Part shown: positions 367 through 17,149 of the stretch, piece by piece
How positions within the stretch are numbered: the first letter of the stretch is position 1
Layout of the letters: every line of letters begins with the position of its first letter
Origin: a virus
Lineage: Duplodnaviria; Caudoviricetes
Direction: 5' to 3' (one strand)
Length of the DNA stretch: 64,000 nt
Virus record (IMG/VR): IMGVR_UViG_3300009183_004565
Position numbers and translations under genes: made by a program
The notes under the pieces: model-generated
Database searches by the model: none
Told to the model about the DNA's origin: nothing
What the model saw: the letters and a program-made list of their open reading frames with translations, nothing else

Positions 367-1098
367 ATGCGAGATTACTTACTCGATATAGTATCACACA
401 CTCATAGTTTGGGTGTTATTGATTTAGTTAAAATTACCGGTACTGATTCGTTGACTCTTGTTAACGCAGTTGGCGAAGAACGTGTGGCTATTGTGGAAGC
501 ACAATTTCATAATCCTGTTCCAGAGTTTATGGGTACCTTTGGTATGCCTAATCTGGGCAAACTTAATACCATTCTTAATATTCCTGAGTACAAGGAAGAT
601 GCCAAACTGTCTATTATCTCTAAAGACGTCGAAGGTGTCAAGACACCCGAAGGCATTCATTTTGAAAACAAAGAAGGAGATTTTAAAAATAGTTATCGAT
701 TCATGAGTGCCAATGTAGTAAACAACACTTTGCAAACAGTTAAGTTTAAAGGTGTTAAATGGGGAGTAGAAATTGAACCCAGCGTGACTTCGATACAGAA
801 ACTTCGATTTCAAGCACAAGCCAATAGTGAAGAAACAAGTTTTATTGCCAAAGTTGAAAATGGTAATTTAGTATTCTATTTTGGTGATCATAGTAGTCAT
901 GCTGGTAACTTTGTGTTTGCACACGATGTAGCAGGAACATTGACCAAAGCATGGCATTGGCCAATTGCTGCTGTAATTAGTATTTTGGCATTGCCTGGTG
1001 ATAAAATGATTAGATTCAGTGACGAAGGTGCAGCTCAAATTACGGTGGATTCTGGATTAGCCGTTTATAATTATATCTTGCCAGCACAAACCAAGTGA
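367..1098 (+). CDS. Putative sliding clamp (gp45/PCNA-like DNA polymerase accessory protein)
   Basis: 243 aa, clamp-sized. Segments VAIVEAQF...FGMPNLGKLNTILNIPEY and IHFENKEGDFKNSYRFMS resemble T4 gp45 organisation. Recognition by eye only. Confidence 0.5.
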   Translation: MRDYLLDIVSHTHSLGVIDLVKITGTDSLTLVNAVGEERVAIVEAQFHNPVPEFMGTFGMPNLGKLNTILNIPEYKEDAKLSIISKDVEGVKTPEGIHFENKEGDFKNSYRFMSANVVNNTLQTVKFKGVKWGVEIEPSVTSIQKLRFQAQANSEETSFIAKVENGNLVFYFGDHSSHAGNFVFAHDVAGTLTKAWHWPIAAVISILALPGDKMIRFSDEGAAQITVDSGLAVYNYILPAQTK

Positions 1099-2361: not shown

Positions 2362-3002
2362 AATTAATAAAATACTGGTACGCGGACTCTCTAATAGATC
2401 CAGATCAAAAATTTTGGTATCTTCCAATATATAAAAATGCCAGCACTAAGATTACCTCATGTTTAAAAAGAAAGAATTGGGATACACTAATTCGCACCAA
2501 TATAATCAACGAAGATAAGTTTGTTAATAAATCTGTGCAATTTGCAATACTTCGCGACCCATACGAGCGTTGGATCTCTACTTATGTTTCTTATATTAAA
2601 AATCCTATATTTGATCAATCTTCTTTGAATTCTCTGTTAGCATCAAAAAATAAAGATGATTTTGTTGAATTGCTATTTAATCGTGCACCTATTCAAGAAT
2701 TTGATATGTATACCAATTTACAATCTGTAGCACTTTTAGATCATCCAGACTTAAAAAAAATTAACTTTTTTTGGCTCAATGGTCAGACTGGATATCAATT
2801 AAATAAATGGCTTCAGTCTCATAATGAAATAACATCATTGAATAACAGTATAGAAAACGGGATTGATAAAAAAGACCCACTATACCGAGAAGTAATTTCT
2901 TTTTTATTTAATTACAAGAATCATAAAATTAAAAACAAAATAATGGATTATTTACAACCAGACTACGATTTTATAAGCGGAATTAATTTTTATGCAAGAT
3001 AA
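2358..3002 (+). CDS. Sulfotransferase (Sulfotransfer_2-like), copy 3
   Basis: YLPIYKNASTK, LRDPYERWIST, DMYTNLQ, DYDFI. Confidence 0.7.
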   Translation: MKLIKYWYADSLIDPDQKFWYLPIYKNASTKITSCLKRKNWDTLIRTNIINEDKFVNKSVQFAILRDPYERWISTYVSYIKNPIFDQSSLNSLLASKNKDDFVELLFNRAPIQEFDMYTNLQSVALLDHPDLKKINFFWLNGQTGYQLNKWLQSHNEITSLNNSIENGIDKKDPLYREVISFLFNYKNHKIKNKIMDYLQPDYDFISGINFYAR

Positions 3003-4539
3003 TTTAACAAGTAAACAAAATGATTACGCAGTATTCTTACCTGCTATCTCGGGCTTCTATGCAACTTTTATAGGAAAGCAGCGTGTTAACAACGACTATG
3101 TTGACCCTGCACGTTTTCCTGTAGGACTAACTGACTTAGAGCAAATGAATTGGCTTAACAGTCAGCAATCTTGGTTTCCGTATCGCTGGAGTTTGTATTC
3201 AGGTGGTCATGCCAATTTGGATTTAACCAAAGACGATCCAAGCGAGGACATGGTTCGTAAACGCGAACCGGGTACATTCATGTTAGGTGACTCAGGTGGA
3301 TTCCAAATTGCCAAGGGTTTATGGGAAGGTGATTGGAAAGCCAACTCAGGTTGCCCCAAGGCTCAAGGTAAACGCGAAGCGGTACTTAAATGGCTGGATG
3401 GCATTGCTGATTACGGCATGATTCTTGATATACCTACCTGGGTAACTAAAGATCCCAAGGCCAGCGCCGCCTGTCAAATCAAAACAGTTCCTGAAGCTAT
3501 TGCAGCAACAAAGTTTAACAATGAATACTTTATTGCAAACAGAAAAGGCAAAGACAACGGTGGTGCCAAGTTCTTAAATGTGTTACAAGGTTCTACACAC
3601 ACCAATGCAGAATCTTGGTATCAAGAAATGAAAAAGTATTGCGATCCTGCACAGTATCCTGGCAAACACTTTGATGGGTGGGCAATGGGCGGACAGAACA
3701 TGTGTGATGTACATTTAATCCTAAAGCGATTGATTGCATTACGTTACGACAATTTACTACAAGAAGGTGTTCATGATTGGATGCACTTCTTGGGTACTTC
3801 AAAACTAGAGTGGGCATTACTACTCACAGATATACAGAGATCAATACGCCGATATGTTAACCCTTCTTTTACTATTTCCTTTGACTGTGCTAGTCCTTTC
3901 CTTGCTACGGCGAATGGACAAGTCTACCACGAAATTGACCTTACCCCAGGACAAAAATGGTCCTATAGAATGAATCCCAGTGCCGACGATAAAAAATATT
4001 CCACAGATACTCGCAGTTACAAAGACGGCACTATACAAGACGGTTTCTGGAAACATTTTGACGAAAGTCCGATTAGCCAACGTTTACAAATGAAAGATAT
4101 TTGTATATATAAACCCGGCGACCTAAATAAGAATGGCAAGGAAGGCAAGACTTCTTGGGATAGTTTCAGTTATGCATTGCTAATGGGGCATAACGTATGG
4201 ACGCACATTGAATCAGTTCAACGTGCCAATCGTGAATATGATGCCGGCAACTATCCTGCTATGATGCAGTATAGTGGCCCCGGACAAGATAAGTTTAAAG
4301 ATATCATTGATAGTATTTTTGCTGCGCCTGACAAACAAACAGCACTTGATATCGTTGAACATTATAGTAAGTATTGGATGGAAATTGTTGGCACTAGAGG
4401 CAACAAAGGTAAAAAAGCGTTGAATTCTGAAACAATGATGGATGTGCATTTTGAATTAGAAGGCAGTAGTGTTAAAGTAGAGAAGTCCAAGAAAGAAAAA
4501 CCCTTGGCAATTTTAAATCCAGATCTTTTTGAGGTATAA
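2992..4539 (+). CDS. dpdA: tRNA-guanine transglycosylase-like protein, probably DpdA-type 7-deazaguanine DNA transglycosylase
   Basis: TGT motifs GDSGGFQ, MILDIP, WAMGG, HFLG, SFDCASP and late HN; clustered with folE/queD/queE. Confidence 0.8.
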   Translation: MQDNLTSKQNDYAVFLPAISGFYATFIGKQRVNNDYVDPARFPVGLTDLEQMNWLNSQQSWFPYRWSLYSGGHANLDLTKDDPSEDMVRKREPGTFMLGDSGGFQIAKGLWEGDWKANSGCPKAQGKREAVLKWLDGIADYGMILDIPTWVTKDPKASAACQIKTVPEAIAATKFNNEYFIANRKGKDNGGAKFLNVLQGSTHTNAESWYQEMKKYCDPAQYPGKHFDGWAMGGQNMCDVHLILKRLIALRYDNLLQEGVHDWMHFLGTSKLEWALLLTDIQRSIRRYVNPSFTISFDCASPFLATANGQVYHEIDLTPGQKWSYRMNPSADDKKYSTDTRSYKDGTIQDGFWKHFDESPISQRLQMKDICIYKPGDLNKNGKEGKTSWDSFSYALLMGHNVWTHIESVQRANREYDAGNYPAMMQYSGPGQDKFKDIIDSIFAAPDKQTALDIVEHYSKYWMEIVGTRGNKGKKALNSETMMDVHFELEGSSVKVEKSKKEKPLAILNPDLFEV

Positions 4540-4746
4540 ATGTACAAAGCTAAAATTAAACAACTTGAAGAATCTCATCGTGTGTTAAACAAACAGATAG
4601 ACGACATGGAACGTAATCATCCTCATGTTGAAGTTGATCGACTTGCTGAAATGAAAAAGAAAAAACTACTTGTTAAAGACGAAATCAGCCGTCTTAATAA
4701 GTTACAATGGGATCACGATCATGAAACGGTACACGGCGATGAATAG
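4540..4746 (+). CDS. Small coiled-coil protein, YdcH/DUF465-like
   Basis: LEESHRVLNKQI...LAEMKKKKLLVKDEI pattern. Confidence 0.55.
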   Translation: MYKAKIKQLEESHRVLNKQIDDMERNHPHVEVDRLAEMKKKKLLVKDEISRLNKLQWDHDHETVHGDE

Positions 4747-5248
4747 AAACGGACATAACAATGCAAGCCTTTTTGTAGGCACTGAAGTAGAACATACACC
4801 TGCATTTGATTTAAAGACACTATTTGTTGTTGATATACAATCTATAGAATTAATCGAAGCCGCATACCTTGCACATAAATGCGAACACATATACTTTGGT
4901 GCTAATCAAAGTTTTGCACCCAACGGTACTGCTAATTATTTTACTTTATGGGAAGAAATGATTACCCATTTTCTTAAGAAAGATCGTTTGTGTACGTTGG
5001 ATTTTGATGTATCCCATGTTGAATATGTATTGGAATATGGGTTCACCGAATATCATAATTTTATCCCAATGATTTCGGTTAAATTGCCCTATATACAACA
5101 ATTAGGATATAATGCTATAATTAAGCTCGACGATAAAGATTTTAATGCAACCAATCCTGGTGTATGGTGTCATAGTGTACACAAGTTACAAAATCGTCGA
5201 GTGTTCACTGACTGGTCTAAATACACCAAAGACGAGATTATTAAATGA
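4739..5248 (+). CDS. Hypothetical protein between dpdA and the DpdL-like gene
   Basis: Clean ORF overlapping both neighbours. The ATG at 4739 is more plausible than 4670. No family recognised. Confidence 0.6.
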   Translation: MNRNGHNNASLFVGTEVEHTPAFDLKTLFVVDIQSIELIEAAYLAHKCEHIYFGANQSFAPNGTANYFTLWEEMITHFLKKDRLCTLDFDVSHVEYVLEYGFTEYHNFIPMISVKLPYIQQLGYNAIIKLDDKDFNATNPGVWCHSVHKLQNRRVFTDWSKYTKDEIIK

Positions 5249-5673
5249 ATCAAGAACAAAGACAAACAGCAGATAGAATTATAGAACGTGCCGAAAGACA
5301 AATTTGGGTAACTTTTAGGCGCGAAGGTATCCATAAATACCCAGCAGCATTGGAGGAACCACAACTTGCGGATGTATCTTTTCTTGGCTATCCTCATCGC
5401 CATATCTTTCATTTCCGGGTGTCAATTGATGTGTTCCACAATGACCGGGACATCGAATTCATCCAATTCAAACGCTGGCTCGAAGGGCTGTATAGTGCTA
5501 GTACACTCATTTTAGATTATAAAAGTTGCGAAATGATTGCTGATGACTTATATGTCCAAATTGCTAGTAAATTTCCCGGACGTAATGTTATAATCAACGT
5601 GAGTGAAGACGGCGAAAATGGCTGTACTATCACTTACAATACACACCAACCTTATCAATCAATGAAAATTTAA
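5245..5673 (+). CDS. dpdL: T-fold QueD paralogue, DpdL-like (candidate CDG decarboxylase)
   Basis: FLGYPHRHIFHFRV = LxxxHRHxF, plus RDIEFIQFKRWL and SCEMIA; QueD-like size; next to dpdA. Confidence 0.65.
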   Translation: MNQEQRQTADRIIERAERQIWVTFRREGIHKYPAALEEPQLADVSFLGYPHRHIFHFRVSIDVFHNDRDIEFIQFKRWLEGLYSASTLILDYKSCEMIADDLYVQIASKFPGRNVIINVSEDGENGCTITYNTHQPYQSMKI

Positions 5674-5674
5674 T

Positions 5675-6049
5675 ATGGTTAAAGCTCCTCCATGTATAGT
5701 ATTAGGGTGCGGAAGATCTTCTTCTTACATTAATAGAAACCAAGATGGCACAAAAAAATATCGAAATACCTGTAGCAAACATCATAAAACGAATTTAAAC
5801 ATGTCTAAAAAAGATTATTGCGAAAATATTGATGGTCGCCTTGGATTTAAATGTACCACTACTATCTTAGGTCCGTATCAATTACAAGTAGATCACGTTG
5901 ACGGAGATCGTTACAATAACGATCCAAAAAATCTTCAGACTTTGTGTGCTTGTTGTCACGCTCATAAAACGCATAAAGAAAAAAATCATCTTAGACGTTA
6001 CAATAAAAAAATACAAACTACATTTAATTCAATTTTCAACTTTCAATAA
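5675..6049 (+). CDS. Free-standing HNH endonuclease
   Basis: LQVDHVDGDRYNNDPKNLQTLCACCHAHKT (HNH core with CxxCH). Confidence 0.8.
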   Translation: MVKAPPCIVLGCGRSSSYINRNQDGTKKYRNTCSKHHKTNLNMSKKDYCENIDGRLGFKCTTTILGPYQLQVDHVDGDRYNNDPKNLQTLCACCHAHKTHKEKNHLRRYNKKIQTTFNSIFNFQ

Positions 6050-6066
6050 AAATCTAAGGAGCAACT

Positions 6067-6990
6067 ATGCCCCGAGTAAAAAAGTCTGCTGCACTAGATG
6101 CCGAGCACGAAAAACTCATTGCGGTTTTAAAGTTTACACCACGTACCTATAAAATTTCATTGTGGGGATATGGTGGCGAATCTGTTATGGGTACCGTACC
6201 TCGCGAAATCTACGATTACTTTAAACAGCGTAGACTTGATGTTAGTGGCTTTGCATGGGACAGCGACTACGCCGAAGAAAACAATATTCCCGAAGCGATG
6301 TGGCCATTCTCTCCTGGTTCATGGTACGAGTGTGATGATATAGCACATGTCAATGGTGTTGTATTAGATAGTGGCACTGTACACATTGAAGATGAAAACG
6401 GTGACGAAATTCTCCAGTGTGGGATTGATGCTTTCCAAGACGAAGACTGTCCTGAATTAGATTACACAGACGAAACCTTTATTGACGATAAGCCGCCAGG
6501 CACTATAGTATTCATTGGCAACAGTAACGAAAAAGGTACGTTCTTTGAAGGCAGTATTGATCTTAGTGCCCCGTTTGATATCAACAAACTAACTTTCAAA
6601 ATTGAAGACGTAGACGGCAGTGAAGTTGTCTGCGGAATAGAATACGACGGCGAGTCGATTGATAACTATGGTGGCGATACCACTGGCAAGAGTTCAGAAT
6701 TTGGATTCTATGTTGCAGGATCAATGAAGAATGGTAAGTGGGAACGTTATCGTAACGAAGATGATTGCACTTACGAAATGACTGCATGGTTTCCAAAAAA
6801 CACCAAACCTGTGCGCGAAGGTGTTTATGAAATTGATGCAGGTAATAAAGAAAAATGGCCAAACTTTAGTCCAACTACAGCACGATGGACAGGCACACGA
6901 TGGCTCAGTGTCTGGGCAGATGACACTCCCGAAACACCAGAAGTAAAAATAAAACAATGGCGTGGCATTGCCTACGATCCAAACAACTAA
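6067..6990 (+). CDS. Hypothetical acidic protein
   Basis: 307 aa ORF with AGGAG RBS; strongly D/E-rich; no family recognised. Confidence 0.6.
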   Translation: MPRVKKSAALDAEHEKLIAVLKFTPRTYKISLWGYGGESVMGTVPREIYDYFKQRRLDVSGFAWDSDYAEENNIPEAMWPFSPGSWYECDDIAHVNGVVLDSGTVHIEDENGDEILQCGIDAFQDEDCPELDYTDETFIDDKPPGTIVFIGNSNEKGTFFEGSIDLSAPFDINKLTFKIEDVDGSEVVCGIEYDGESIDNYGGDTTGKSSEFGFYVAGSMKNGKWERYRNEDDCTYEMTAWFPKNTKPVREGVYEIDAGNKEKWPNFSPTTARWTGTRWLSVWADDTPETPEVKIKQWRGIAYDPNN

Positions 6991-7012
6991 CCTTAATAAC
7001 TAGGAGAATAAA

Positions 7013-7231
7013 ATGGCCGCAGCATGGCTCAAGAAGTATCTAAAGATGAAACCCGAAGTCAATCAAATCTTTGAAGACCTCGAGAAATACAAAGAGTTTT
7101 GTGTAACATACGGTTACATCTACGACGAGCGTCACTTGTACAACGAAAAAACACCTTGGGGCGAGTTCGAACGTGTACAACGTGGCAAATGGCCCAAGAT
7201 GAATTGGTATGCCAAGAAGGAACGTACCTAA
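7013..7231 (+). CDS. Hypothetical protein
   Basis: AGGAG RBS, 72 aa ORF. Confidence 0.55.
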   Translation: MAAAWLKKYLKMKPEVNQIFEDLEKYKEFCVTYGYIYDERHLYNEKTPWGEFERVQRGKWPKMNWYAKKERT

Positions 7232-7235
7232 TTAA

Positions 7236-7781
7236 ATGAACGTTTTAACTTACGATCATGTACTCCCAACTTGGTTAGAGGAGTCTGGAGAAAATCAGTT
7301 CTATAGATTTCCTTTAGAATATAATCATCGCACAAAAGATGAAAATCCTCCATTTTTTGGTAAGTGTCTATACAACAAAAAAACAGGAGTATATGTTCAA
7401 TCTCCTTATTTTGTAGATGCTTTGTGTGATTGTATTAGGTATGACCTTGTGAATAAAATTGACCCAAGTGCAACATTCAATGAATTTCAAAGAGTGATTG
7501 TAAACGGGCAGATAGGTGGTATGTCTCCTGGTAGACATCCTGACTATGATGATCGTAATATGTGGACTGCTGTTTATTTCCTGTTAGGAAATTCAGGAGA
7601 CCTAGTATTTTATCTTGATAACACTACTAAGAAGATCAAGTTTAGAAAACATAGATTGGTAGTGTTTAATAGTCGTATAGAACACGAAGCACTAGCACCC
7701 AATGAAGGTGATTGGAGAATGAGCATTGGTATCAATTGGTATATGGATACCAAATTTAATGAAATTGTAAAAGGAAAATAA
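7236..7781 (+). CDS. 2OG-Fe(II) oxygenase (prolyl-hydroxylase-like)
   Basis: HxD (RHPDYDD), distal His (IEHEALAP) and RxS (WRMSIG). Confidence 0.75.
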   Translation: MNVLTYDHVLPTWLEESGENQFYRFPLEYNHRTKDENPPFFGKCLYNKKTGVYVQSPYFVDALCDCIRYDLVNKIDPSATFNEFQRVIVNGQIGGMSPGRHPDYDDRNMWTAVYFLLGNSGDLVFYLDNTTKKIKFRKHRLVVFNSRIEHEALAPNEGDWRMSIGINWYMDTKFNEIVKGK

Positions 7782-8974
7782 TGCGTAAATTATGGTATAT
7801 GGGTCTAGAACCCTATAAAGCACGATACACTCTACAGTTACAAGAGTGGAATCGTGCTGTATTTGACCGCCGTGGCATCAACTACGAAATAGTAGAAGGC
7901 GAAACGCTAAGTAACGACCAAGCCATTGTAACCGGACAAGTGCTAGATGCACATGGTCGTACATACTTTGGTATGAGCCAACTGATGAATCTTGTTCGCA
8001 AGATGAAAGCAGGAGAAGTTACCAATGAAGATGTTGTATACTTCGAAGACATGTTTCAACCTGGTATCGAGAGCTTGCCTTATATCATGCAGCAGTGCGA
8101 TCCTGCTATGCGTCCCAAGATTGCTGTTCGTTGTCTTGCACAAAGCATTGACCCAGATGACTTTGTTCATGTCTGGGGCATGCAACAGTGGATGGGGCAT
8201 TATGAAAAGATGGTAGATAGTTTTGCCGATATCGTTCTTGCCAGTAACGAAGAAATGGTTATGCACATGAAGGTTGCAGGATGGCAGGCTCCTGTGTATA
8301 ATATTAGTGGACTGGCATTTGGCAAAGAGGAAGTACGTGGTCGTGTGGCCGGTGCACTAAAGCCATTCCATGGTCGTAAGTATCGTGTGGGATTTGCTGC
8401 CCGATGGGATCAAGAGAAGCAACCAGACTTTTACATGGATCTAATAGAAGAATATCACCGTCGTGCCAGTTTTGTGTTTAATGATTGGCCCAATGTTGAG
8501 TTCTGCGTATTCAGTGGCAGTAAACTAAAAAGCAATAACGACAGTTACATGGCTCGTACTCGACGTATGCAGGCTGAAGGTAAACTTGTCGTTCATGAGG
8601 ACTTGGAAAAAAATGATTATTATAATTTACTCAATGATACTCGTGTGTTATTCAATTGCGCTTTACAAGACTGGGTTAGTAACACTGTCAGCGAAGCCGA
8701 CACTCTGGGATGTAATGTGTTATATCCCGCATATCGTAGTTTTCCTGAGTCTTTTGCTAACGATCATGAAAGACTTTACATTCCTTGGAGTATAGATGAC
8801 GCAATTACTAAACTTAATAAGCTATTGGAGCATCCTCATCCCGGTATGGGCACCATTAGTGATTGGACTGGGGGTACCATTGATCGCATTGTGGACATTC
8901 TAGAAGGCAAGGGCGAACAGTGGCAGCGCATGAGTACCGACTATCGTAAACATACACACGAGCACAAGTATTAA
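7781..8974 (+). CDS. GT-B (GT4-like) glycosyltransferase
   Basis: VGFAARWDQEKQP, YYNLLNDTRVLFNCALQDWVSNTVSEADTLGCNVL (GT4-type C-terminal nucleotide-sugar-binding segment). Confidence 0.75.
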   Translation: MRKLWYMGLEPYKARYTLQLQEWNRAVFDRRGINYEIVEGETLSNDQAIVTGQVLDAHGRTYFGMSQLMNLVRKMKAGEVTNEDVVYFEDMFQPGIESLPYIMQQCDPAMRPKIAVRCLAQSIDPDDFVHVWGMQQWMGHYEKMVDSFADIVLASNEEMVMHMKVAGWQAPVYNISGLAFGKEEVRGRVAGALKPFHGRKYRVGFAARWDQEKQPDFYMDLIEEYHRRASFVFNDWPNVEFCVFSGSKLKSNNDSYMARTRRMQAEGKLVVHEDLEKNDYYNLLNDTRVLFNCALQDWVSNTVSEADTLGCNVLYPAYRSFPESFANDHERLYIPWSIDDAITKLNKLLEHPHPGMGTISDWTGGTIDRIVDILEGKGEQWQRMSTDYRKHTHEHKY

Positions 8975-9948
8975 TGAAAATAGTTATCACAGGAGGATGT
9001 GGCTACATTGGTAGTCACATCGCACGAGCACTAAAACAACACAATGCAGATAATTGTGTATACATTATTGACCGTGTGCGTAGAGATCATACACTTCAAG
9101 ATGTAGACGGCTACCTACACGAAGATTATGCCAGCAAGAACAGTTTGCTATGGATTACGGAACTAGAACCTGATGTTATTGTGCATTGTGCAGGCAGCAG
9201 TCTTGTTGGCGAGAGTATGACCAATCCTGCTGAGTATTATGAAAACAATATTGCAAAGACTATTACTCTATTGTCGCATGTAAAAGATCTACGTAAGAAA
9301 CCTTTGATACTGTTTAGTAGTAGTGCCAGTGTGTACGGCAATCCTGCGACTGTTCCGGTATATGAGTCAGATCCCAAACTGCCTATCAGTCCATATGGTG
9401 TTAGCAAACATGTTACTGAACGACTATTAAGTGACTATCATGCAGCATACGGTGTTCCTAGTGTGTGCTTTAGATATTTTAATGCAGCCGGAGCAGAACC
9501 TTTTGCACATGACCTTGGGCAAGCACCTGGTGCCAGTCATATCGTTGCTAGAATACTAGAAGCCAAACTTGCTGGGAAATCGTTTACGCTTAATGGTGCA
9601 GATTATAACACACCGGATCGTACTTGTATTCGTGATTACATACACGTATGGGATTTGGCTGACGCACACATACGTGCCATTGAGTGGATGAACAATGAGA
9701 ATGAGAAACGTGCTGCAGTGATGAATCTTGGTACTCAACATGGTATTAGCAATCAAGAGATTATTGATTATGTAACAGTAAACTACGGTGGCATTGATGT
9801 TGTAGTTGGGCCAAGGCGCCCCGGAGATCCAGATCGACTTGTTGCTGATGCAAGTGTAGCATATGCTTTATTAAAATGGAAACCTGTCTACTCAACGATC
9901 AATCAAATTGTTGATAGTGCATACAAATGGTATACTCGTGAGCTTTGA
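8974..9948 (+). CDS. galE: UDP-glucose 4-epimerase
   Basis: GGCGYIGSH, FSSSASVYG, YGVSK (YxxxK), RYFNAAGA, IRDYIHVWDLA. Confidence 0.9.
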   Translation: MKIVITGGCGYIGSHIARALKQHNADNCVYIIDRVRRDHTLQDVDGYLHEDYASKNSLLWITELEPDVIVHCAGSSLVGESMTNPAEYYENNIAKTITLLSHVKDLRKKPLILFSSSASVYGNPATVPVYESDPKLPISPYGVSKHVTERLLSDYHAAYGVPSVCFRYFNAAGAEPFAHDLGQAPGASHIVARILEAKLAGKSFTLNGADYNTPDRTCIRDYIHVWDLADAHIRAIEWMNNENEKRAAVMNLGTQHGISNQEIIDYVTVNYGGIDVVVGPRRPGDPDRLVADASVAYALLKWKPVYSTINQIVDSAYKWYTREL

Positions 9949-10522
9949 TCGCATATTGGAGTTTGAACAAGCACTGGCCGAATACACAGGTGCGCCATAC
10001 GCAATCATGACTGATTGTTGTACTCATGCTATTGAGTTGTGTCTAAGATTTCAAAAGCCCACTCATTGTGCATTTACTGCTTTTACCTATCTGTCTGTGC
10101 CAATGACCATGCACAAACTAGGAATTGAGTACAGATTGATTCCCGAAGTATGGACTGGCGAATATCAATTCCACGGAACCACAATTTGGGATAGCGCACG
10201 TAGGCTAGAGCGAGGAATGTATCGAGCAGGACAGATGCAATGTCTCAGCTTCGGTTACACTAAGCCTTTACAAATAGGCCGTGGTGGTGCTATACTGTTA
10301 GACAATGAACAAGCATACAACACTATAACGGAACAACGATATGATGGGCGCAAATTATCAGTTACACCCTGGCAGGAACAAAAAACCTTCATGGTGGGCT
10401 ATCATTATAGACCGACTCCGGAAGAAGCTGCGATTGGATTAATAAAATTGCGCGATGTTAATGAACTGCCTAAATATCACGAATATCCTGATCTAAGAGA
10501 TATTAAAATTATTGGAGAATAA
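9938..10522 (+). CDS. Compact DegT/DnrJ/EryC1/StrS-family PLP aminotransferase-like protein
   Basis: FEQALAEYTG, TDCCTHAIEL, WDSA, SFGYTKPLQIGRGG (PLP lysine). Only ~195 aa. GTG at 9938 is the likely start. Confidence 0.7.
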   Translation: MSFDRILEFEQALAEYTGAPYAIMTDCCTHAIELCLRFQKPTHCAFTAFTYLSVPMTMHKLGIEYRLIPEVWTGEYQFHGTTIWDSARRLERGMYRAGQMQCLSFGYTKPLQIGRGGAILLDNEQAYNTITEQRYDGRKLSVTPWQEQKTFMVGYHYRPTPEEAAIGLIKLRDVNELPKYHEYPDLRDIKIIGE

Positions 10523-11354
10523 GTTGACCACAAAAGAATTTACACCAAATCCAGTATTAAACGAAACACCTGATAAAGAATTTGTTCCTATGGAACTGGA
10601 ATCTATGTATGTGGCTTTACCACAAAAGGTATATGTGAAAGCTGGCGAAGCTGCTGCCGCTAAACAATCATATTTGTCGGATGCTATTCGTGCCAGGATG
10701 AAACGTGACGGTAAAAGATACTGGGCAGGAGATAACATCAGTGACTATCTAGCGGACAGTGACAAAGAACATCTAATCAGCGAAGCCGCAGAAGCATTTG
10801 AACTAGTACTAGACCGTTTGCTGATTGATCGCGAAAATGATCCTAACAGTCGAGGTACAGCACGACGCCTGGCTAAAATGTACTTCAACGAAATAATGGC
10901 AGGTAGATATGAAACGGCACCAGACGCAACGGCTTTTCCAAATGATTCGGAGGAAAGATATGAAGGTATGCTTGTGGTTAGAAGTGAACTTCGCAGTATG
11001 TGTAGCCATCATCACCAGCCCGTTACTGGTGTTGCTTATATTGGTATTATCGCCGCTAATAAACTTATCGGTCTTAGTAAGTATACTCGTATTGCTCAGT
11101 GGTGCGCTCGTCGTGGCACACTACAAGAAGAGCTGTGTAATGATATCGCTAGAGAGATTATGAAGGCCACTGATGCTAAAGATGTAGCAGTATATGTACA
11201 AGCGATACATGGATGTTGCGAAAATCGCGGCATTATGGCACATAGTTCGTTAACTCAAACTACAGTATTAAAGGGAACATTCAAAGATGATCCTCATACT
11301 AAGAAGGAATTCTTCGACAACATTAAACTACAACAAGAATTTGCACCAAGGTAA
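10512..11354 (+). CDS. folE: GTP cyclohydrolase I
   Basis: TARRLAKMY, SMCSHH, GLSKYTRIAQWCARRGTLQEEL, HGCCENRG. Confidence 0.93.
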   Translation: MENKLTTKEFTPNPVLNETPDKEFVPMELESMYVALPQKVYVKAGEAAAAKQSYLSDAIRARMKRDGKRYWAGDNISDYLADSDKEHLISEAAEAFELVLDRLLIDRENDPNSRGTARRLAKMYFNEIMAGRYETAPDATAFPNDSEERYEGMLVVRSELRSMCSHHHQPVTGVAYIGIIAANKLIGLSKYTRIAQWCARRGTLQEELCNDIAREIMKATDAKDVAVYVQAIHGCCENRGIMAHSSLTQTTVLKGTFKDDPHTKKEFFDNIKLQQEFAPR

Positions 11355-11394
11355 TTTGCTCCAACCGCCTTAAATATAAGGTAAAGGAGCAAAA

Positions 11395-11724
11395 ATGTCA
11401 GACGAACAAGAAGAGTTTAAAAAAAAATTACAAGCCCTAAAGCCCAAAAAAAAGAAGTTAGCCGTTCCTGAAGGTTTCTTAGACGATGCTAAAAGTTACG
11501 AAGGCAAATTAGAAGCTGTTAAAATAATCTCAGAGCGAGAAAAAGATCGAGTTATTTTGATATTTAAAAAAATGATTGCACAAGGTAAAGAAGATGCAAT
11601 ACGTATTGAACGAGAAAAACTAGAAGCTAAACGAGCAGCTGAAGCTAAAGAAGCATTAGAAAGAGCAGCAAAGATAGCAAAAGAAAAGTTAGCCAAAAAA
11701 TCATTATTTGGTAAAAAGAAGTAA
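11395..11724 (+). CDS. Basic coiled-coil hypothetical protein
   Basis: AGGAG RBS, K/E/A-rich helical sequence; preceded by TTAAATA box at 11370-11376. Confidence 0.55.
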   Translation: MSDEQEEFKKKLQALKPKKKKLAVPEGFLDDAKSYEGKLEAVKIISEREKDRVILIFKKMIAQGKEDAIRIEREKLEAKRAAEAKEALERAAKIAKEKLAKKSLFGKKK

Positions 11725-11742
11725 ATTCAATTAATCAAGGAG

Positions 11743-11937
11743 ATGTATATGAAACTCAACGACAAGCTAGTAAAATGCAACGATCATTTTACTGTCTATA
11801 TGTACGACAATGGCTATATGGTTGAAATTGGTGGACGTGACGACAACGACGAATGGGTTACTGCCAAAGTTCTTTGCACAGATTTTAAAGAACTAACCAA
11901 TCTTATCGAAGAAGCTACCATAATGGAACGTGACTAA
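11743..11937 (+). CDS. Hypothetical protein
   Basis: AGGAG RBS, 64 aa ORF. Confidence 0.55.
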   Translation: MYMKLNDKLVKCNDHFTVYMYDNGYMVEIGGRDDNDEWVTAKVLCTDFKELTNLIEEATIMERD

Positions 11938-12470
11938 TGAAAAAGTTAATTATCTCGGATGCTGAATTTAAAAAATTAGTTCACAAGCTCTGCAGAGATA
12001 TTGCCAATAGCGATTGGCGACCTGACTATGTTGTAGGTTTAACTCGTGGTGGACTTACTGCTGCTGCCATGATCAGTCATTATTTTGATGTTCCTATGGA
12101 AACATTGAAGCCAAGATCGGAAAGCAATTGCTGGATGGCTGAAGATGCATTTGGATATATTCCAGACGGTCCGCTACGTGAAGGCATAGATAAACGCAGT
12201 GACGCTACATTTAAAAAGAAAATTCTTGTTGTCGATGACATTAACGATACCGGTTCTACACTTGAATGGATACGTGAAGATTGGCAATCAAGTTGTTTGC
12301 CCAACGACGAATCTTGGAAATATGTATGGAACAAGAACGTGCGTTTTGCTGTATTAATCAATAACGAATCCAGTAACTATGAGCATGTGGATTATTCAGG
12401 TCGTAACATTAATAAACTTGATGATCCGTGTTGGGTAGTGTTCCCCTGGGAAAATTGGTGGGAGGCATGA
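11937..12470 (+). CDS. Type I phosphoribosyltransferase (xanthine/guanine PRT-like)
   Basis: VVGLTRGG, PRPP loop ILVVDDINDTGSTL, C-terminal WVVFPWE. Confidence 0.85.
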   Translation: MKKLIISDAEFKKLVHKLCRDIANSDWRPDYVVGLTRGGLTAAAMISHYFDVPMETLKPRSESNCWMAEDAFGYIPDGPLREGIDKRSDATFKKKILVVDDINDTGSTLEWIREDWQSSCLPNDESWKYVWNKNVRFAVLINNESSNYEHVDYSGRNINKLDDPCWVVFPWENWWEA

Positions 12471-12805
12471 TTGCCTTACCGCCAGGCTGTACTGTTACCT
12501 ATGCTGTTTGGGTCGATGTAAATCGACTCACCAACGAAATGGTTGAATGGTATCGTCAAGTTGATGGCAAGGTTTACGAAGATCGTTGGTATGATACTCG
12601 AGGTAGAGAACAAACAGTAAACTACGTGAGTTATGGCAAGAGCAAACGATGCCATCATCATCACAACGGTCAAGGTGGTACTAGGTTACACTTCCACGGT
12701 GATGATGCTAGTGCGGCCAGTATGTTTATATTAAAGTTTTTCAATCACGTAACTAGTAATAATTTACAAGACGTAATGGAACGTCATGCTCACGAGGTTG
12801 ACTAA
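12467..12805 (+). CDS. Hypothetical protein
   Basis: GGAGG RBS then ATG 12467 overlapping the PRT stop. Confidence 0.55.
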   Translation: MIALPPGCTVTYAVWVDVNRLTNEMVEWYRQVDGKVYEDRWYDTRGREQTVNYVSYGKSKRCHHHHNGQGGTRLHFHGDDASAASMFILKFFNHVTSNNLQDVMERHAHEVD

Positions 12806-12812
12806 GTAAATT

Positions 12813-13382
12813 ATGATCAATGTAGGAATATATCTAGAATCTAAGCCATTTAATGATAATTGGCCAAAAATTAAAATCTATCATAACAATAGTCTACTCG
12901 ACGATGTAATTTGTCATCAGTCACTAGAGTTACATTATCAAATTAAACCTAGCGTTGATAACCTTCTCTCAATTGAGATGTACGGAAAAAGATTCGGCGA
13001 TGGCGGAATATATGATGTGGACAGTAACGGACAAGGACAAGAAATTCAAATTAAAGATATTACTTTTGATGATGTGTCAATTGATCACTTGTTGTCAAAA
13101 GTTGAATTTGAAACCCACTGGACTGAACACCAGCTTTCTTCACACAACGAAGAATTTAGATCTAAATATAATAGATATCAATCCAACGGTATGATAGTCT
13201 TTAACGGAAGACTGAATTTTAATTTTTCAACTCCTATATATGATTTTTTAATTGATAAAAAGTATAAAGTTGATCATAACAAAGACATTGCTTATTTTAG
13301 TAACAGCACGGAACTATTTAATTTTCATCTTGGATTAAGTAAATTAGAAGAAATTAAAAAAATTATTACAGAAAATGAATAA
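12813..13382 (+). CDS. Hypothetical protein (predicted beta-rich), partner of the B12 radical SAM gene
   Basis: 189 aa ORF overlapping the next gene; AT-rich like it. Confidence 0.55.
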   Translation: MINVGIYLESKPFNDNWPKIKIYHNNSLLDDVICHQSLELHYQIKPSVDNLLSIEMYGKRFGDGGIYDVDSNGQGQEIQIKDITFDDVSIDHLLSKVEFETHWTEHQLSSHNEEFRSKYNRYQSNGMIVFNGRLNFNFSTPIYDFLIDKKYKVDHNKDIAYFSNSTELFNFHLGLSKLEEIKKIITENE

Positions 13383-14880
13383 AAAAGTTTTAGTATTATC
13401 AGTTCCGCGACTCGAACCACATCGCCCCCCAATTAGTGCTACTCTTGTTGCTACTGTATGCAAAAATCACGGTTGTGATGTTAAGTTACGAGATCTAAAT
13501 ATTGAATTTTATCATTATTGTAAATTAAATAATATAGAATATCAAAAATTTGATCCAATTTGGGATAGATATGTAGAACCATCAAATTTAGAACTATCAC
13601 ATATACACACTCATATAGATAATTTTATTGCAACTGAAGATTTGCATTCTTACGATATCATTATGATCAGTGTATTTGGCTCAAGTAGCCATTACTTCAC
13701 TGAAATGTTATTAAAAAAAATTGCAGTAGATAGATCTTATAAAATTTTATTAGGTGGTTCGGGAGCATTTGTGTCTATTATGAATCGTGGGCATAATTCT
13801 TTTGTTGTGGAGATGCAAAAACAAAATCTAATAGACGATTTTATAAAAGGCGAGTGCGAAGAATCCTTAAAATATTATTTAGACGGTAAAGAATATCCAG
13901 GAATTAATAACTATGATCCTGTGCAGATTGATGATTTAGATTCATTACCGTTAATTGATTATAGTTTTGTTGACTTAGATGCTTATGAATATCTCACTGA
14001 AACTAAAGATGTTTATGTAGAAGGTAGTAGGGGATGTGTACGTAAATGTACTTATTGTGATGTTCAGAAATTTTGGCCAAAATATCGTTTCAGAAGTGGT
14101 CAGCATATTGCACACGAGCTTATTAACAATTACGAAAAATTTGGCATTAAAAAATTTTACTTTACTGATAGCTTAGTTAACGGAAGTTTAAAATCATTCA
14201 ATCAGATGTGCGATATTCTTGCTAATTACCCATATAGCAAAGAAATTAGCTGGGGAGGACAATTTATTTTCAGAAATGAAAGAACTGTGCCACCGGAGCA
14301 TTTTGAAATGATCGCTAAGGCCGGCGGTACTAATACTTTTTACGTAGGAATAGAAACTGGCAGTGATCAAGTTAGAAAACAAATGGGTAAAAATTTTACC
14401 AACGAAGATATTAGTTATCAACTTGAAGAATTTAAAAAGAATAAATTGAAATGTACTTTTTTAATGTTTCCTGGCTATATTACAGAAACTGAAAAGGATC
14501 ATCAAGACACATTAGATATGTTTTTAAGATGGCAAAAGTATGTAGCCAGTGGAACTATCAATGGTTTAGAATTAGGTAGTCCTTTGATAGTTCTCGAAGG
14601 AACCCCACTAGCTAGTATGATTGATGAGTATCAAATTGCATTTTTAGAGAGTGATAGAATTACTACTGGTAATTTCTGGGTATCAAAATTAAATCCAAGT
14701 TTTGATTTTGAGCAGCGAGCTATTAGGCAAATCAGACTATACGAAGAAGCTGCAAAATATAAATGGCCTATTTGGAGATTTGAATCAAGAGCTGAAGAAT
14801 TAAAACAAACTCTAATTAGATTTTATGAAATAAAAGAAAAAAATCCAACATATAAGATAACACCAATTAAAATTAATTAA
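13375..14880 (+). CDS. Cobalamin-binding-domain radical SAM enzyme (class B methyltransferase-like)
   Basis: N-terminal PPIS...DLN B12-binding-type region; EGSRGCVRKCTYCD (CxxxCxxC), FTDSLVNG, GIETGS, PGYITET. Confidence 0.8.
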   Translation: MNKKVLVLSVPRLEPHRPPISATLVATVCKNHGCDVKLRDLNIEFYHYCKLNNIEYQKFDPIWDRYVEPSNLELSHIHTHIDNFIATEDLHSYDIIMISVFGSSSHYFTEMLLKKIAVDRSYKILLGGSGAFVSIMNRGHNSFVVEMQKQNLIDDFIKGECEESLKYYLDGKEYPGINNYDPVQIDDLDSLPLIDYSFVDLDAYEYLTETKDVYVEGSRGCVRKCTYCDVQKFWPKYRFRSGQHIAHELINNYEKFGIKKFYFTDSLVNGSLKSFNQMCDILANYPYSKEISWGGQFIFRNERTVPPEHFEMIAKAGGTNTFYVGIETGSDQVRKQMGKNFTNEDISYQLEEFKKNKLKCTFLMFPGYITETEKDHQDTLDMFLRWQKYVASGTINGLELGSPLIVLEGTPLASMIDEYQIAFLESDRITTGNFWVSKLNPSFDFEQRAIRQIRLYEEAAKYKWPIWRFESRAEELKQTLIRFYEIKEKNPTYKITPIKIN

Positions 14881-14973
14881 TAAATACTGTTCTACACAGC
14901 GGCCTTTCTGGCATTCATCCCGCTTTACAAATTCTGCAAGCCTATGCTAAAATCTTAACATAGGAGAAAAACA
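14880..14973 (+). promoter_or_regulatory. Late-promoter-like box plus structured 5' leader of queD (candidate preQ1-I-like riboswitch)
   Basis: ATAAATA at 14880-14886. Stem AGCGG (14898-14902)/CCGCT (14920-14924) encloses GCC-TTTCT-GGC, then an A-rich linker. CCTATG (14941-14946)/CATAGG (14959-14964) overlaps the AGGAG RBS. Confidence 0.5.
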
Positions 14974-15471
14974 ATGCAACCTGTTGTATATAAATTTACT
15001 AGTACCAAAGAGTATCACGACGCCTTTCCTTGCGCTTACCGGCAATGGCGTGCCGATAGTCATTGTAATCTAATACACGGCTATTCATTTAGTATGAAGT
15101 TCTACTTTGGTACTAACGACTTAGACGTTCGTAATTGGGCAGCTGACTACGGTGGACTTAAAGAACTTAAAAAGATTCTTGAAGATCAATTTGACCACAC
15201 ATTAATTGTAGCCGAGGACGATCCCGAACTTGCAACATTTAAGTTGTTACAAGAACGGAACATGGCCAAGATTGTCATACTACCACGTTTAGGCTGTGAA
15301 GGCCTAGCTGACTCGCTGTACAAATATGTGAATGGTGTTTATATTCCTGATATGTGGGGACCTAGTGAAGCTGAACGCTTATGGTGTTATCGTGTAGAGG
15401 TTAGAGAGACACAAGCAAACATGGCGTACCGAGAAGGTCACCGTGAATGGAACGAGGATCTGTTTGCGTAA
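14974..15471 (+). CDS. queD: 6-carboxy-5,6,7,8-tetrahydropterin synthase
   Basis: HCNLIHGYSF (CxxxHG), DYGGLKELKKILEDQFDH, GCEGLA, VEVRET. Confidence 0.88.
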   Translation: MQPVVYKFTSTKEYHDAFPCAYRQWRADSHCNLIHGYSFSMKFYFGTNDLDVRNWAADYGGLKELKKILEDQFDHTLIVAEDDPELATFKLLQERNMAKIVILPRLGCEGLADSLYKYVNGVYIPDMWGPSEAERLWCYRVEVRETQANMAYREGHREWNEDLFA

Positions 15472-16285
15472 GTTCGTTATACGATGTGCCCGGAATCCGG
15501 ATGGTCAAGAATTCTTAGACTTAGAATTCAATATTCGTCCGGGCTCTTACTCCGGCAAATGGATAGACTGCATACGTAGTGTGGAACACTTACCTCCACA
15601 TCAATACGGATTTCCCAAATGGCTAGAACACGATGCCGGTGTATACGAGCAACGTATTGCAGATGCATTAAACAACAACACAGATATACAAGAGTTTTTA
15701 TTAGACTCTAACATTGATAGAACCGTGATCAATCAAGACTTGGTCAATGCTGTCCATAGATATATTGAGCACAATCATCAACATGCCGCCGAACATCTTG
15801 TGTTACACAATGACATACATTACTTAGAAAGTATTTGGGAAGGTGCAACTGATGTTGTGTTCAAGAAGTTACAGTGGGTACCACCAGGGCTAATAATTGA
15901 CATGACCTTGGATGACTATAAAGAATTTACTACAGAACCATGCACTAACTTTATACAAGACGATTTTAGTCATGTAGGACGTAGTCCACATAACAGTTAC
16001 CTATATCAAGATGACTCCAGTCTGTACACTAGTTGTGTTATACAACATAAAGTTGGTTCAGGTGCTAAATGGTTTATTCCTGATGATAGTCATATCTTTA
16101 AGGACGAACGTGGATTCAGATCGTGGGTCAGTGAACATCAAGCGTTTTTTAAAAAGCAATGGGCGATAGAAACTAATAACGATCCTAGGCTTTGTTTTGG
16201 CCGTATTATTATTGCCGAAGGTGTGGAAGATTATAGTCGGATTGATAGGACATTTGACTTCGTAGTAAAAGCTTTTATTATCTAA
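15443..16285 (+). CDS. Hypothetical protein, His/Glu-motif family (paralogue of 45334-46458 and 47697-48488)
   Basis: VHRYIE...IHYLE; SHVGRSP; FRSW...DPRLCFGRIII shared with the two paralogues. Confidence 0.6.
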   Translation: MNGTRICLRKFVIRCARNPDGQEFLDLEFNIRPGSYSGKWIDCIRSVEHLPPHQYGFPKWLEHDAGVYEQRIADALNNNTDIQEFLLDSNIDRTVINQDLVNAVHRYIEHNHQHAAEHLVLHNDIHYLESIWEGATDVVFKKLQWVPPGLIIDMTLDDYKEFTTEPCTNFIQDDFSHVGRSPHNSYLYQDDSSLYTSCVIQHKVGSGAKWFIPDDSHIFKDERGFRSWVSEHQAFFKKQWAIETNNDPRLCFGRIIIAEGVEDYSRIDRTFDFVVKAFII

Positions 16286-16306
16286 ATATTTGTAGTATAA
16301 TACATT

Positions 16307-17149
16307 ATGTCAAAAATTAAAATTGCAGAGCTGTTTTACAGCATACAAGGAGAAGGTCGTTACATGGGTGTGCCTAGTGTGTTCTTGCGAACATTTGGGT
16401 GTAACTTTAAATGTGCCGGCTTTGGTATGCCTCGAGGACAATTAAGTACAGAGGCAGATTTGGTTGATCCGGAAAAATATAAATTCTACGATAAACTACC
16501 TTTAGTTAGCACAGGTTGCGATAGTTACGCTAGTTGGGATCCAAGATTTAAAGATCTTAGTCCCATGCTCGAAAGCGATGCTATTGCGGATCGTATCATG
16601 GAGATATTGCCTTTTAACGAGTGGCGAGATGAACACTTGGTTATTACAGGTGGAGAACCTTTACTAGGGTGGCAACGTGCTTATCCGGACTTGTTAAATC
16701 ATCCTCGGATGGCAGGACTTAAAGAAATTACCTTTGAAACTAATGGTACTCAAAAGCTAACTCCAGAATTTAAACATTATTTAGGAGAGTGGACTGCTGA
16801 AAACTGGGATAGAGAAGTTACATTTAGTGTAAGTGCTAAACTAAGTTGTAGCGGCGAAAGTAGAGAAGAAGCACTACAACCAGAAGTTGTTTGCGAATAT
16901 CAATCTGTAGGAAATACCTATCTTAAATTTGTTGTAGCAACAGACGACGATGTAGAAGAAGCATTATGGACCGTACAAGTTTATAGACAAGCAGGATTTA
17001 CAGGGCATGTATATCTGATGCCCACAGGTGGTGTTGAGAGTGTGTATGCATTAAACAATCGTCGTGTAGCAGAACTTGCTATGAAACACGGATTAAGATA
17101 CAGCGATAGATTACAAGTACCGCTATTTAAAAATGAATGGGGTACTTAA
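16307..17149 (+). CDS. queE: 7-carboxy-7-deazaguanine synthase (radical SAM)
   Basis: ELFYSIQGEGRYMGVPSVFLRTFGCNFKC...CDS, ITGGEP, FETNGT, SVSAKL. Confidence 0.92.
   Translation: MSKIKIAELFYSIQGEGRYMGVPSVFLRTFGCNFKCAGFGMPRGQLSTEADLVDPEKYKFYDKLPLVSTGCDSYASWDPRFKDLSPMLESDAIADRIMEILPFNEWRDEHLVITGGEPLLGWQRAYPDLLNHPRMAGLKEITFETNGTQKLTPEFKHYLGEWTAENWDREVTFSVSAKLSCSGESREEALQPEVVCEYQSVGNTYLKFVVATDDDVEEALWTVQVYRQAGFTGHVYLMPTGGVESVYALNNRRVAELAMKHGLRYSDRLQVPLFKNEWGT

Follow-up and report, generated by a model that had tools for sequence, protein, structure and literature searches.

Phage phiST is among the closest described systems to the locus discussed here: with FolE, QueD, QueE, DpdL and DpdA, and without QueC, 7-deazaguanine (dDG) replaces all G in its DNA (Cui et al. 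2023, PMC10516641). Expression of DpdA and DpdL from phiST and from phage ACP17 in E. coli did not yield dDG, and missing further enzymes were suggested (PMC10516641). The present analysis concerns the locus at positions 2992-17149 of a 64,000-nucleotide stretch of viral DNA (IMG/VR record IMGVR_UViG_3300009183_004565), hereafter the window. The locus features the same QueC-less core and, in addition, a gene for a GT4-type glycosyltransferase (GT). This gene travels with the module in many unrelated phages, and a sugar-bearing purine not yet described may therefore be present in their DNA. The 7-deazaguanine modifications of DNA published so far are eight variants with small side chains, and a GT locked to DpdL points to a ninth, bulkier class.

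The QueC-less core and its linked glycosyltransferase

Positions 1-63765 of the window correspond, in reverse complement, to the initial 63,765 bases of a 144,478-bp IMG/VR viral contig with a CheckV completeness of 41%. The genomes of relatives reach 337-370 kb, therefore the contig represents only part of a jumbo-phage genome. When the locus was compared with 50,697 phage records by Megablast, there was no match, and no cultured relative was found by this method. A DpdA relative is encoded by 591 related viral contigs, and the genes of the window were mapped on the 80 best of them (DpdA identity of 72-86%), which are the related loci referred to below; in metagenomes, the clade accounts for over 8,000 protein clusters. 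All genes between 367 and 18391 are located on the plus strand and are mostly stop/start coupled, with consecutive stop-to-start overlaps of GT, GalE, DegT and FolE, and the module adjoins the genes for DNA polymerase B and an RNaseH/FEN protein. The recurrent order in the related loci is virion protein, (sulfotransferase), DpdA, u4670, DpdL, u7013, GT and GalE, followed by (DegT), FolE, phosphoribosyltransferase (PRTase), u12428, QueD, QueE, u17307 and RNaseH, where brackets mark the genes that are not always present.

The initial annotation of the window described dpdA/tRNA-guanine transglycosylase (TGT)-like, folE, queD, queE and DpdL-like genes as co-oriented within the locus, and all of them are present on the plus strand. 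FolE, GTP cyclohydrolase I (10512..11354, +; Pfam 1.8e-40 and NCBIfam FolE), has a 100-aa N-terminal extension. QueD, the 6-carboxytetrahydropterin (CPH4) synthase (14974..15471, +; Pfam PTPS), has a C-x3-H-G-Y motif in common with QueD of phiST, and QueE (16307..17149, +; phrog_2076 at 1e-52 and NCBIfam QueE models) is the radical S-adenosylmethionine (SAM) synthase of 7-carboxy-7-deazaguanine (CDG). DpdL (5245..5673, +; 142 aa) is a T-fold protein paralogous to QueD and the proposed CDG decarboxylase. Its motif F-L-GYP-H-R-H-I-F corresponds to LxxxHRHxF, where Leu replaces the Cys of QueD (CxxxHGH), and aligns with DpdL of phiST, ACP17, PA5oct, X1 and Phosso. The protein matches phrog_17812 (3e-38) and is 57% identical to DpdL of ACP17 and 35% to that of phiST. 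The DpdL domain is found within a larger protein of 294-393 aa in Vibrio phage Bakedbeans (L092:9230-10411) and Chryseobacterium phage MA9V-3 (L095:9428-10312), and likewise in a metagenome contig (L096:6769-7956).

No match to QueC, QueF or ArcS/DUF5591 was found anywhere in the 144,478-bp contig, which is 41% complete, so that the absence noted at first for 64 kb extends to the whole contig. A complete 337-kb relative with terminal repeats (L085/G001, IMGVR_UViG_3300023174_005338) has no true QueC either. The weak match to the QueC model in that genome proved to be a NadE-type PP-loop protein (SGGxDS and GTGNK...YGDGG). This amidoligase (L085:1429-2184) is encoded directly downstream of QueE, has no counterpart in the window's contig and could serve CDG amidation (a variant of the 7-amido-7-deazaguanine (ADG) type) or plain NAD metabolism. 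Another PP-loop recruit in a QueC-less module, a 3'-phosphoadenosine 5'-phosphosulfate (PAPS)-reductase/PP-loop protein, is located between FolE and the GT-DpdA-DpdL genes of Xanthomonas phage X1 (L088:6338-6871).

On its sequence, the locus is identified as a QueC-less, DpdL-type module for the 7-deazaguanine modification of phage DNA. Since the FolE-QueD-QueE-DpdL-DpdA set has been published for phiST, the core is not new: the QueC-less arrangement with DpdL is the published dDG system (PMC10516641). The accompanying proposal that the inserted base is CDG or its decarboxylated product agrees with the phiST literature, the decarboxylated product being the expected one.

The conserved extra enzyme of the module is the GT (7781..8974, +), assigned to the GT4 type (GT-B, retaining-type) with a fold model and a family profile. 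The AlphaFold2 (AF2) model (predicted local distance difference test, pLDDT, 95; predicted template modelling score, pTM, 0.92) has the two-Rossmann GT-B fold. The best Foldseek matches are BshA, MshA, PimA and glycogen synthase (E 3e-11 to 1e-9), with MshA and TuaC in Swiss-Prot. A family hidden Markov model (HMM) was built from 75 representatives with 28-58% identity; a Glycos_transf_1 match was found in 49 of them, with the best E of 4.5e-10. Arg and Lys of the phosphate-binding site (R208 and K213) do not vary in the family, whose version of the GT4 motif E-x7-E is D297-x7-E. Columns at least 90% conserved number 21 in the N-terminal acceptor domain and 14 in the donor domain; conservation of the acceptor domain thus equals or exceeds that of the donor domain, which suggests one fixed, specific acceptor. 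A specific kinship with the queuosine mannosyltransferase QTMAN/GTDC1 was considered and is not supported for this GT: none of the 75 members matches PF12038 (E<=0.01), and GTDC1 is not among the top 30 Swiss-Prot structural matches.

The GT stop codon is overlapped by the start of the gene for UDP-glucose 4-epimerase GalE (8974..9948, +; TIGR01179, 288 bits vs cut-off of 262). GalE is found in essentially all relatives with enough flank, and the PA5oct homolog is truncated. A bona fide GalE overlapping the GT stop codon implies a UDP-hexose donor, perhaps UDP-galactose, and GalE probably supplies the donor sugar of the GT.

The GT HMM was searched in the loci around DpdL of every cultured phage that has DpdL. 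A GT family member adjoins DpdL in PA5oct (1.6e-41), ACP17 (7.6e-41), X1 (7e-58), BCSR5 (3e-58), Phosso (7e-43) and BUCT-ZZ01 (3e-208), the last GT being 63.5% identical to that of the window. In two metagenome contigs, GT genes whose products are 29-31% identical to the window GT have QueD, QueE, FolE and DpdL directly upstream. The GT therefore adjoins DpdL in nine independent phage lineages, namely the clade, six cultured phages and two metagenome contigs, and the linkage of a GT-B enzyme to the deazaguanine module, pointed out in the initial annotation, is conserved far beyond this phage together with GalE. DpdL is also present in all phage records in which tblastn detects a GT homolog, and a DpdA-type transglycosylase is present in all GT-bearing lineages where the flank permits a check. 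Whole-genome searches, in which positive controls were detected, found no GT in phiST, RHph_I1_18, Bakedbeans, D479, Ahp1 and MA9V-3. The long type of DpdA described below was not found in the last five of these GT-less DpdL phages (phiST was not searched). In the related loci, the median identity of the GT equals that of DpdA (75%). Directly before its DpdA gene, BUCT-ZZ01 has another GT4-like gene that is unrelated to the DpdL-linked one (L087:6010-7353).

The transglycosylase of the module (2992..4539, +; 515 aa) was recognised from motifs and profile matches. The protein has no match in Pfam, NCBIfam, PHROG or PADLOC, and the curated TGT model PF01702 gave none at E<=1 for the protein and at E<=10 for the 144-kb contig. 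The motifs DSGGFQ, LQG, GWAMGG, HFLG and SFDC are present, and the segments D100-S-G-G-F-Q and S296-F-D298-C, with the two catalytic Asp, are invariant across the family. When the family profile was compared with the PDB, 40 of the 42 matches were tRNA-guanine transglycosylases, with weak E-values, and the catalytic core aligned residue for residue to residues 99-296 of Z. mobilis TGT.

Ordinary HMM searches did not connect the long DpdA group with the DpdA2 group. HHalign comparison of the long-DpdA profile (clade, PA5oct and Vibrio phage 2.275.O) with a DpdA2-like profile, composed of the validated DpdA2 of VH7D and the proteins of ACP17, X1, BUCT-ZZ01 and BCSR5, gave a probability of 93.3% (E 2.7e-7, 187 columns), and ACP17 DpdA itself matches the validated DpdA2 of VH7D and nt-1 at E 1e-38. 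With DpdA3 of phiST (CGPG_00065, gp042) the probability was only 9.4%. In tblastn, homologs of the window DpdA were found only in the PA5oct group (34% identity; the closest PA5oct homolog is EST35_0316), in Vibrio phage 2.275.O and in Sinorhizobium phage Phosso, and no Cellulophaga or Campylobacter phage, the DpdA3 subfamily of phiST and CP220, was matched. Membership in DpdA3 was rejected on both counts. With these two profile probabilities, the protein is best assigned as a long, divergent DpdA related to DpdA2. HHpred was likewise needed to recognise the TGT kinship of DpdA3 and DpdA4 (Cui et al., PMC10516641).

Action of this enzyme on tRNA instead of DNA would agree with its membership in the TGT superfamily and with a tRNA cluster on the contig. 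Such a target is extremely improbable in view of the kinship with the validated DNA enzyme DpdA2, the modified G in PA5oct DNA, the lack of a Pfam TGT match and the lack of the CxCxxC zinc motif of tRNA TGTs, a single Cys following SFDC. In Vibrio phage 2.275.O, a long DpdA stands with QueF, QueC, a Gat-like aminohydrolase and a YhhQ-like transporter, without DpdL or GT (L002:13905-19983), and an Amidoligase_2-like protein is its neighbour; the long-DpdA branch is therefore not tied to one deazaguanine.

Predicted pathway and alternative roles of the glycosyltransferase

According to the family assignments, FolE, QueD and QueE would convert GTP to CDG, and DpdL, following the phiST precedent, would decarboxylate CDG to 7-deazaguanine. 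The divergent DpdA would swap genomic guanine for the deazapurine after replication; the DNA of PA5oct, the phage with the 34%-identical DpdA, resists restriction at G-containing sites and is a target of END nucleases that sense G modification (PMC12191111). The gene linkage suggests, as the most likely role of the GT4 enzyme, transfer of a hexose, which could precede or follow insertion, to the deazaguanine or to its precursor; the donors would come from GalE and, in some members of the clade, from the short DegT-like protein or other UDP-sugar enzymes, and the outcome would be a sugar-bearing derivative rather than plain dDG. Relatives do swap in other UDP-sugar enzymes at the locus, e.g., UDP-glucose dehydrogenase. 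The purine-type PRTase would most simply recycle the released guanine. We consider, with moderate confidence, that the locus as a whole is best explained as a QueC-less DpdL module with GT4 as an integral fourth component and with the low-GC genes as insertions.

A glycosylated deazaguanine in the DNA of this phage is thus plausible, and a hexosyl, probably galactosyl-type, 7-deazaguanine is tentatively predicted for the virion DNA of the clade, PA5oct, ACP17, X1, BCSR5, Phosso and BUCT-ZZ01. No description of a glycosylated (sugar-bearing) purine in DNA was found in the literature searched. A precedent for the reaction is HuiG of huimycin biosynthesis, a GT4-family enzyme that glycosylates the free 7-deazaguanine base.

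Several points weigh against a glycosylated base. 7-Deazaguanine has no obvious hydroxyl acceptor, so a sugar would have to be attached through N, C or a carboxyl group, or to an intermediate that has escaped detection. The window GT scores below the Pfam cut-off (21.3 vs 25 bits), and RHph_I1_18 has no GT, yet its DpdL is 62% identical to that of the window. Within the clade, synteny alone is weak evidence, the whole region being collinear; as synteny among close relatives proves little, the comparison beyond the clade is decisive. In the literature, too, CDG decarboxylation by DpdL has the status of a proposal (PMC10516641). Finally, phiST has plain dDG with DpdL and without a GT (PMC10516641), therefore the sugar is not required for entry of the base into DNA. 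It is the missing hydroxyl and this phiST phenotype that keep the glycosylated base a tentative prediction and make a non-DNA or helper role of the GT a possible, if doubtful, alternative.

In this alternative, the phage would have plain dDG as phiST does, and GT, GalE and DegT would be linked to the module without decorating DNA: the product could be a soluble glycosylated deazapurine or pterin, the GT could assist DpdL or DpdA as a non-catalytic or chaperone-like partner, or it could glycosylate protein. The complete (100%) dDG of phiST speaks for it, as do the small-molecule acceptors of the top structural matches of the GT, which include the GT4 enzymes BshA, MshA, LmbT and tetrahydrobiopterin glucosyltransferase. 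FolE, a PTPS-like protein and a GT together resemble pterin-glycoside biosynthesis, and the window has a second large glycan cluster with an adenosine 5'-phosphosulfate (APS) kinase. However, the GT always occurs with DpdL and QueE, radical-SAM deazapurine genes which pterins do not need, in all nine lineages, and a DpdA-type transglycosylase accompanies them wherever it could be checked. Moreover, a metabolite with no role in DNA leaves unexplained why the GT is as conserved as DpdA.

The linkage of the GT also bears on the failed reconstitution of dDG with ACP17 DpdA and DpdL, for which the omission of two conserved neighbouring genes, GT and u4670, is offered as a concrete possible reason. 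A sugar-bearing class of modification, if true, would have consequences for the evasion of restriction, CRISPR and END nucleases and for the sequencing of such DNA. The GT-bearing lineages include therapeutic-candidate Pseudomonas jumbo phages and a very abundant jumbo-phage clade.

Recurrent partners and low-GC insertions

A conserved protein upstream of the module (367..1098, +), a homolog of the PA5oct virion protein EST35_0314, forms the left syntenic border and is kept in 79 of the 80 related loci. It is 35% identical to PA5oct 0314 and 34% to _465 of Vibrio phage 2.275.O, both of which are encoded directly upstream of the DpdA of the respective phage. PADLOC gave no matches on the window, and a scan for promoters and terminators gave counts equal to those of shuffled sequence. 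A preQ1-I-like riboswitch before queD (14881-14976) was considered and rejected, as no Rfam family reached the gathering threshold in the window and only chance-level matches (MIR390 and freshwater-2, E 0.28-1.6) were found at 14700-15100.

The initial annotation listed a 2-oxoglutarate (2OG) oxygenase, GT-B, GalE, DegT-like, PRTase and B12 radical SAM genes as interleaved with the core, with three sulfotransferase genes upstream. All of these genes are present, and they differ in their conservation. The short DegT/pyridoxal phosphate (PLP) aminotransferase-like protein of 204 aa (9908..10522, +; Pfam DegT 2e-18 over profile positions 162-240 only) is a truncated form retaining the PLP lysine region. 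Its gene overlaps those of GalE and FolE and is found in 28 of the 80 related loci (54-74% identity). A u4670-family protein of 175 aa (4721..5248, +) is a recurrent partner of the module; its homologs adjoin DpdA in ACP17 and the GT in metagenome contig L098, and are located elsewhere in PA5oct. The AF2 model of u4670 (pLDDT 80) gave one unnamed homolog and no significant fold match in the PDB and AFDB clusters. The 72-aa u7013, immediately upstream of the GT, and the acidic 307-aa u6067 (together 6067..7231, +) are clade-specific and have no family match; u7013 precedes the GT in every one of the 58 of 80 loci where it occurs, and u6067 is found in 11. The conserved small protein u12428 (12428..12805, +) belongs to the recurrent gene order. 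Iterative HMM searches of distant loci found none for u7013, u12428, u11395, u6067 and the short DegT. The slot between QueD and QueE is variable and is occupied in the window by a 280-aa protein without family match (u15443; 15443..16285, +), absent from all 80 related loci and with a homolog only in L107, the nearest relative retrieved (57% identity).

The purine-type PRTase (11937..12470, +; Pfam Pribosyltran, type I) has weak NCBIfam matches to xanthine (XPRT) and hypoxanthine-guanine (HGPRT) phosphoribosyltransferases. Its homologs also occur within the module in PA5oct and BUCT-ZZ01 and were not found in the module of ACP17, X1, BCSR5 and Phosso. Its conservation in the clade and the two former phages as a PF00156 enzyme might suggest a route through the nucleotide pool, where, as in the QueC-less tubercidin pathway of CDG, PRTase and decarboxylase, the PRTase would couple CDG to phosphoribosyl pyrophosphate (PRPP), DpdL would decarboxylate the nucleotide, and a polymerase would incorporate deaza-dGTP, leaving DpdA a minor or repair role. 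The location of the locus beside the DNA polymerase B and RNaseH/FEN genes is in line with this route. It is nevertheless improbable: the PRTase is missing from the module of the four latter phages, DpdA is as conserved as any gene of the locus, no dGTP-clearing enzyme is seen in the locus, and the nearest families of the PRTase, XPRT and HGPRT, fit salvage of the released guanine.

The remaining genes have a different base composition. The GC-content of the core and its conserved partners (DpdA, DpdL, GT, GalE, DegT, FolE, PRTase, QueD and QueE) is 0.39-0.44, versus 0.28-0.34 for the inserts: 0.28-0.30 for the sulfotransferases, 0.32 for the HNH endonuclease, 0.34 for the 2OG oxygenase, 0.29 for u12813 and 0.31 for the B12 radical SAM protein. 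The three paralogous sulfotransferase-like genes (1095-1739, 1711-2361 and 2358-3002, all +) encode proteins with 24-34% pairwise identity. Pfam Sulfotransfer_2 is matched by two of the three (31.2 and 22.1 bits vs cut-off of 22), and KNAS(S/T) and R-x-P-x-E-R-W-x-S are present in all three and are read as the PAPS-binding 5'-phosphosulfate-binding (5'-PSB) and 3'-phosphate-binding (3'-PB) motifs. Their copy number varies from 0 to 4 among relatives, with none in 45 of the 80 related loci, and they are absent from distant relatives. An APS-kinase-like gene (40092-40727, -) is located inside the window's second large glycan/radical-SAM cluster, and PAPS supply for the sulfotransferases may belong to this glycan cluster rather than to the deazaguanine module.

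The HNH homing endonuclease (5675..6049, +; Pfam HNH_3), a mobile insertion, was found in one of the 80 related loci. The 2OG-Fe(II) oxygenase-like gene (7236..7781, +; Pfam below cut-off, phrog_274 at 1e-19) is absent from all 80 and represents a recent insertion specific to this phage; a recent insertion is also represented by the low-GC segment of u12813 and the B12-binding radical SAM gene (12813..14880, +; the latter at 13375-14880). No relative of u12813 occurs in the 80 loci, and relatives of the B12 radical SAM protein occur in three, with about 30% identity and at a different position. L107, whose DpdA is 96.9% identical to that of the window, has the three sulfotransferases and lacks the 2OG oxygenase, u12813 and the B12 radical SAM gene. 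A GIY-YIG/NUMOD3 homing endonuclease (18392-18988, -) is the only minus-strand gene of the region; together with the HNH endonuclease it flanks or interrupts the module, which fits an insertion hot spot. In relatives, the cargo of these hot spots includes UDP-glucose dehydrogenase (5 loci), SPASM radical SAM (7), a Bax1-I membrane protein (13) and an FkbM-type methyltransferase (L057:10469-11662, L012:6128-7342, L012:12427-13194 and L108:6452-7417).

By composition and distribution, the sulfotransferases, the 2OG oxygenase, the B12 radical SAM gene with u12813 and the HNH endonuclease are recent low-GC insertions outside the putative conserved pathway. An additional hydroxylation, methylation and sulfation of the inserted deazaguanine by the 2OG oxygenase, the B12 radical SAM enzyme and the three sulfotransferases could be imagined from the co-orientation and tight packing of these genes within or beside the module, from the APS kinase as a possible provider of PAPS, and from the presence, at these hot spots in relatives, of further genes for radical SAM enzymes, methyltransferases and sulfotransferases. 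Such tailoring is very improbable considering the distribution just described: the oxygenase and u12813 are missing from all related loci, the B12 radical SAM relatives are rare and lie elsewhere in the locus, all three are missing from L107 despite its 97% DpdA identity, more than half of the relatives have no sulfotransferase, and the GC-content of the inserts is 28-34% as compared with 40-44% for the core. None of these genes occurs in the distant GT-bearing modules.

The lack of conserved linkage to dpdA among relatives had been named beforehand as evidence against a role of an accessory gene. Linkage was found to be conserved for the GT and not for the oxygenase, the methylase and the sulfotransferases. 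Hence, of the tailoring initially proposed for the deazaguanine, glycosylation is plausible through the GT linkage, and methylation, oxidation and sulfation are unsupported. Overall, the QueC-less module, with its already published core, and its GT/GalE linkage stand, and the roles of the oxygenase, methylase and sulfotransferases are not supported. Placing these genes among recent inserts guards against over-reading the pathway.

Comparison with known systems

The system of phiST (PMC10516641) resembles that of the window in its QueC-less CDG pathway, DpdL with the LxxxHRHxF motif and a DpdA-family transglycosylase, all beside replication genes. It differs in that its transglycosylase is a DpdA3, whereas the window has the long 515-aa branch related to DpdA2. 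In addition, phiST lacks GT4, GalE, PRTase and u4670 and has a MazG-like protein and an ATPase instead. The DpdA2 proteins of VH7D and nt-1 have the same core as the window DpdA (DSGG(F/L)Q, QG, H-x-LG and S(F/Y)D(C/S)). Those phages, however, possess QueC and QueF or ArcS and insert preQ0, preQ1 or G+, whereas the window phage has DpdL and GT and no QueC.

Outside phages, similar enzymes are known from the huimycin and dapiramicin, and tubercidin, secondary-metabolite pathways of actinomycetes. In huimycin biosynthesis, HuiG (PF13439) is a GT4-family enzyme acting on a free 7-deazaguanine-type base, and the tubercidin pathway is QueC-less, with CDG, a PF00156 PRTase and a decarboxylase. Unlike the phage module, these pathways have no transglycosylase and lead to free nucleoside antibiotics, and the decarboxylase is of the UbiD type and not a T-fold DpdL.

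The Pseudomonas jumbo phage PA5oct (Wroclawvirus) harbors a compact syntenic version of the window locus, EST35_0314-0325, with the order virion protein, DpdA (34%), a 353-aa protein of the GT family, DpdL (56%), a Rossmann remnant, PRTase, QueE and RNaseH. It differs from the window in that its module has no full GalE or DegT and its u4670 homolog is located elsewhere. The chemical identity of the modified base of PA5oct was not found in the literature searched.

The alpha- and beta-glucosyltransferases (GT) of T-even phages, acting on 5-hydroxymethylcytosine (5-hmC), share with the window GT the GT-B fold and the context of DNA modification, and the GalE next to the latter implies a UDP-sugar donor. 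In contrast, the window GT is linked to genes for a purine (deazaguanine), and the T4 enzymes are not among its top structural matches. A T4-type hydroxymethyl-pyrimidine system was rejected for the window phage: no dCMP/dUMP hydroxymethylase was found in the 144 kb, and the only ThyA-family gene of the contig (31249-32166, +) encodes a canonical thymidylate synthase (350.7 bits vs equivalog cut-off of 327), therefore T4-type hydroxymethyl-pyrimidine acceptors are unlikely. In the hexosyl reading, the sugar-tailoring genes of the deazaguanine module, which vary among relatives, would have a parallel in T-even phages, some with glucosyl and others with arabinosyl hmC.

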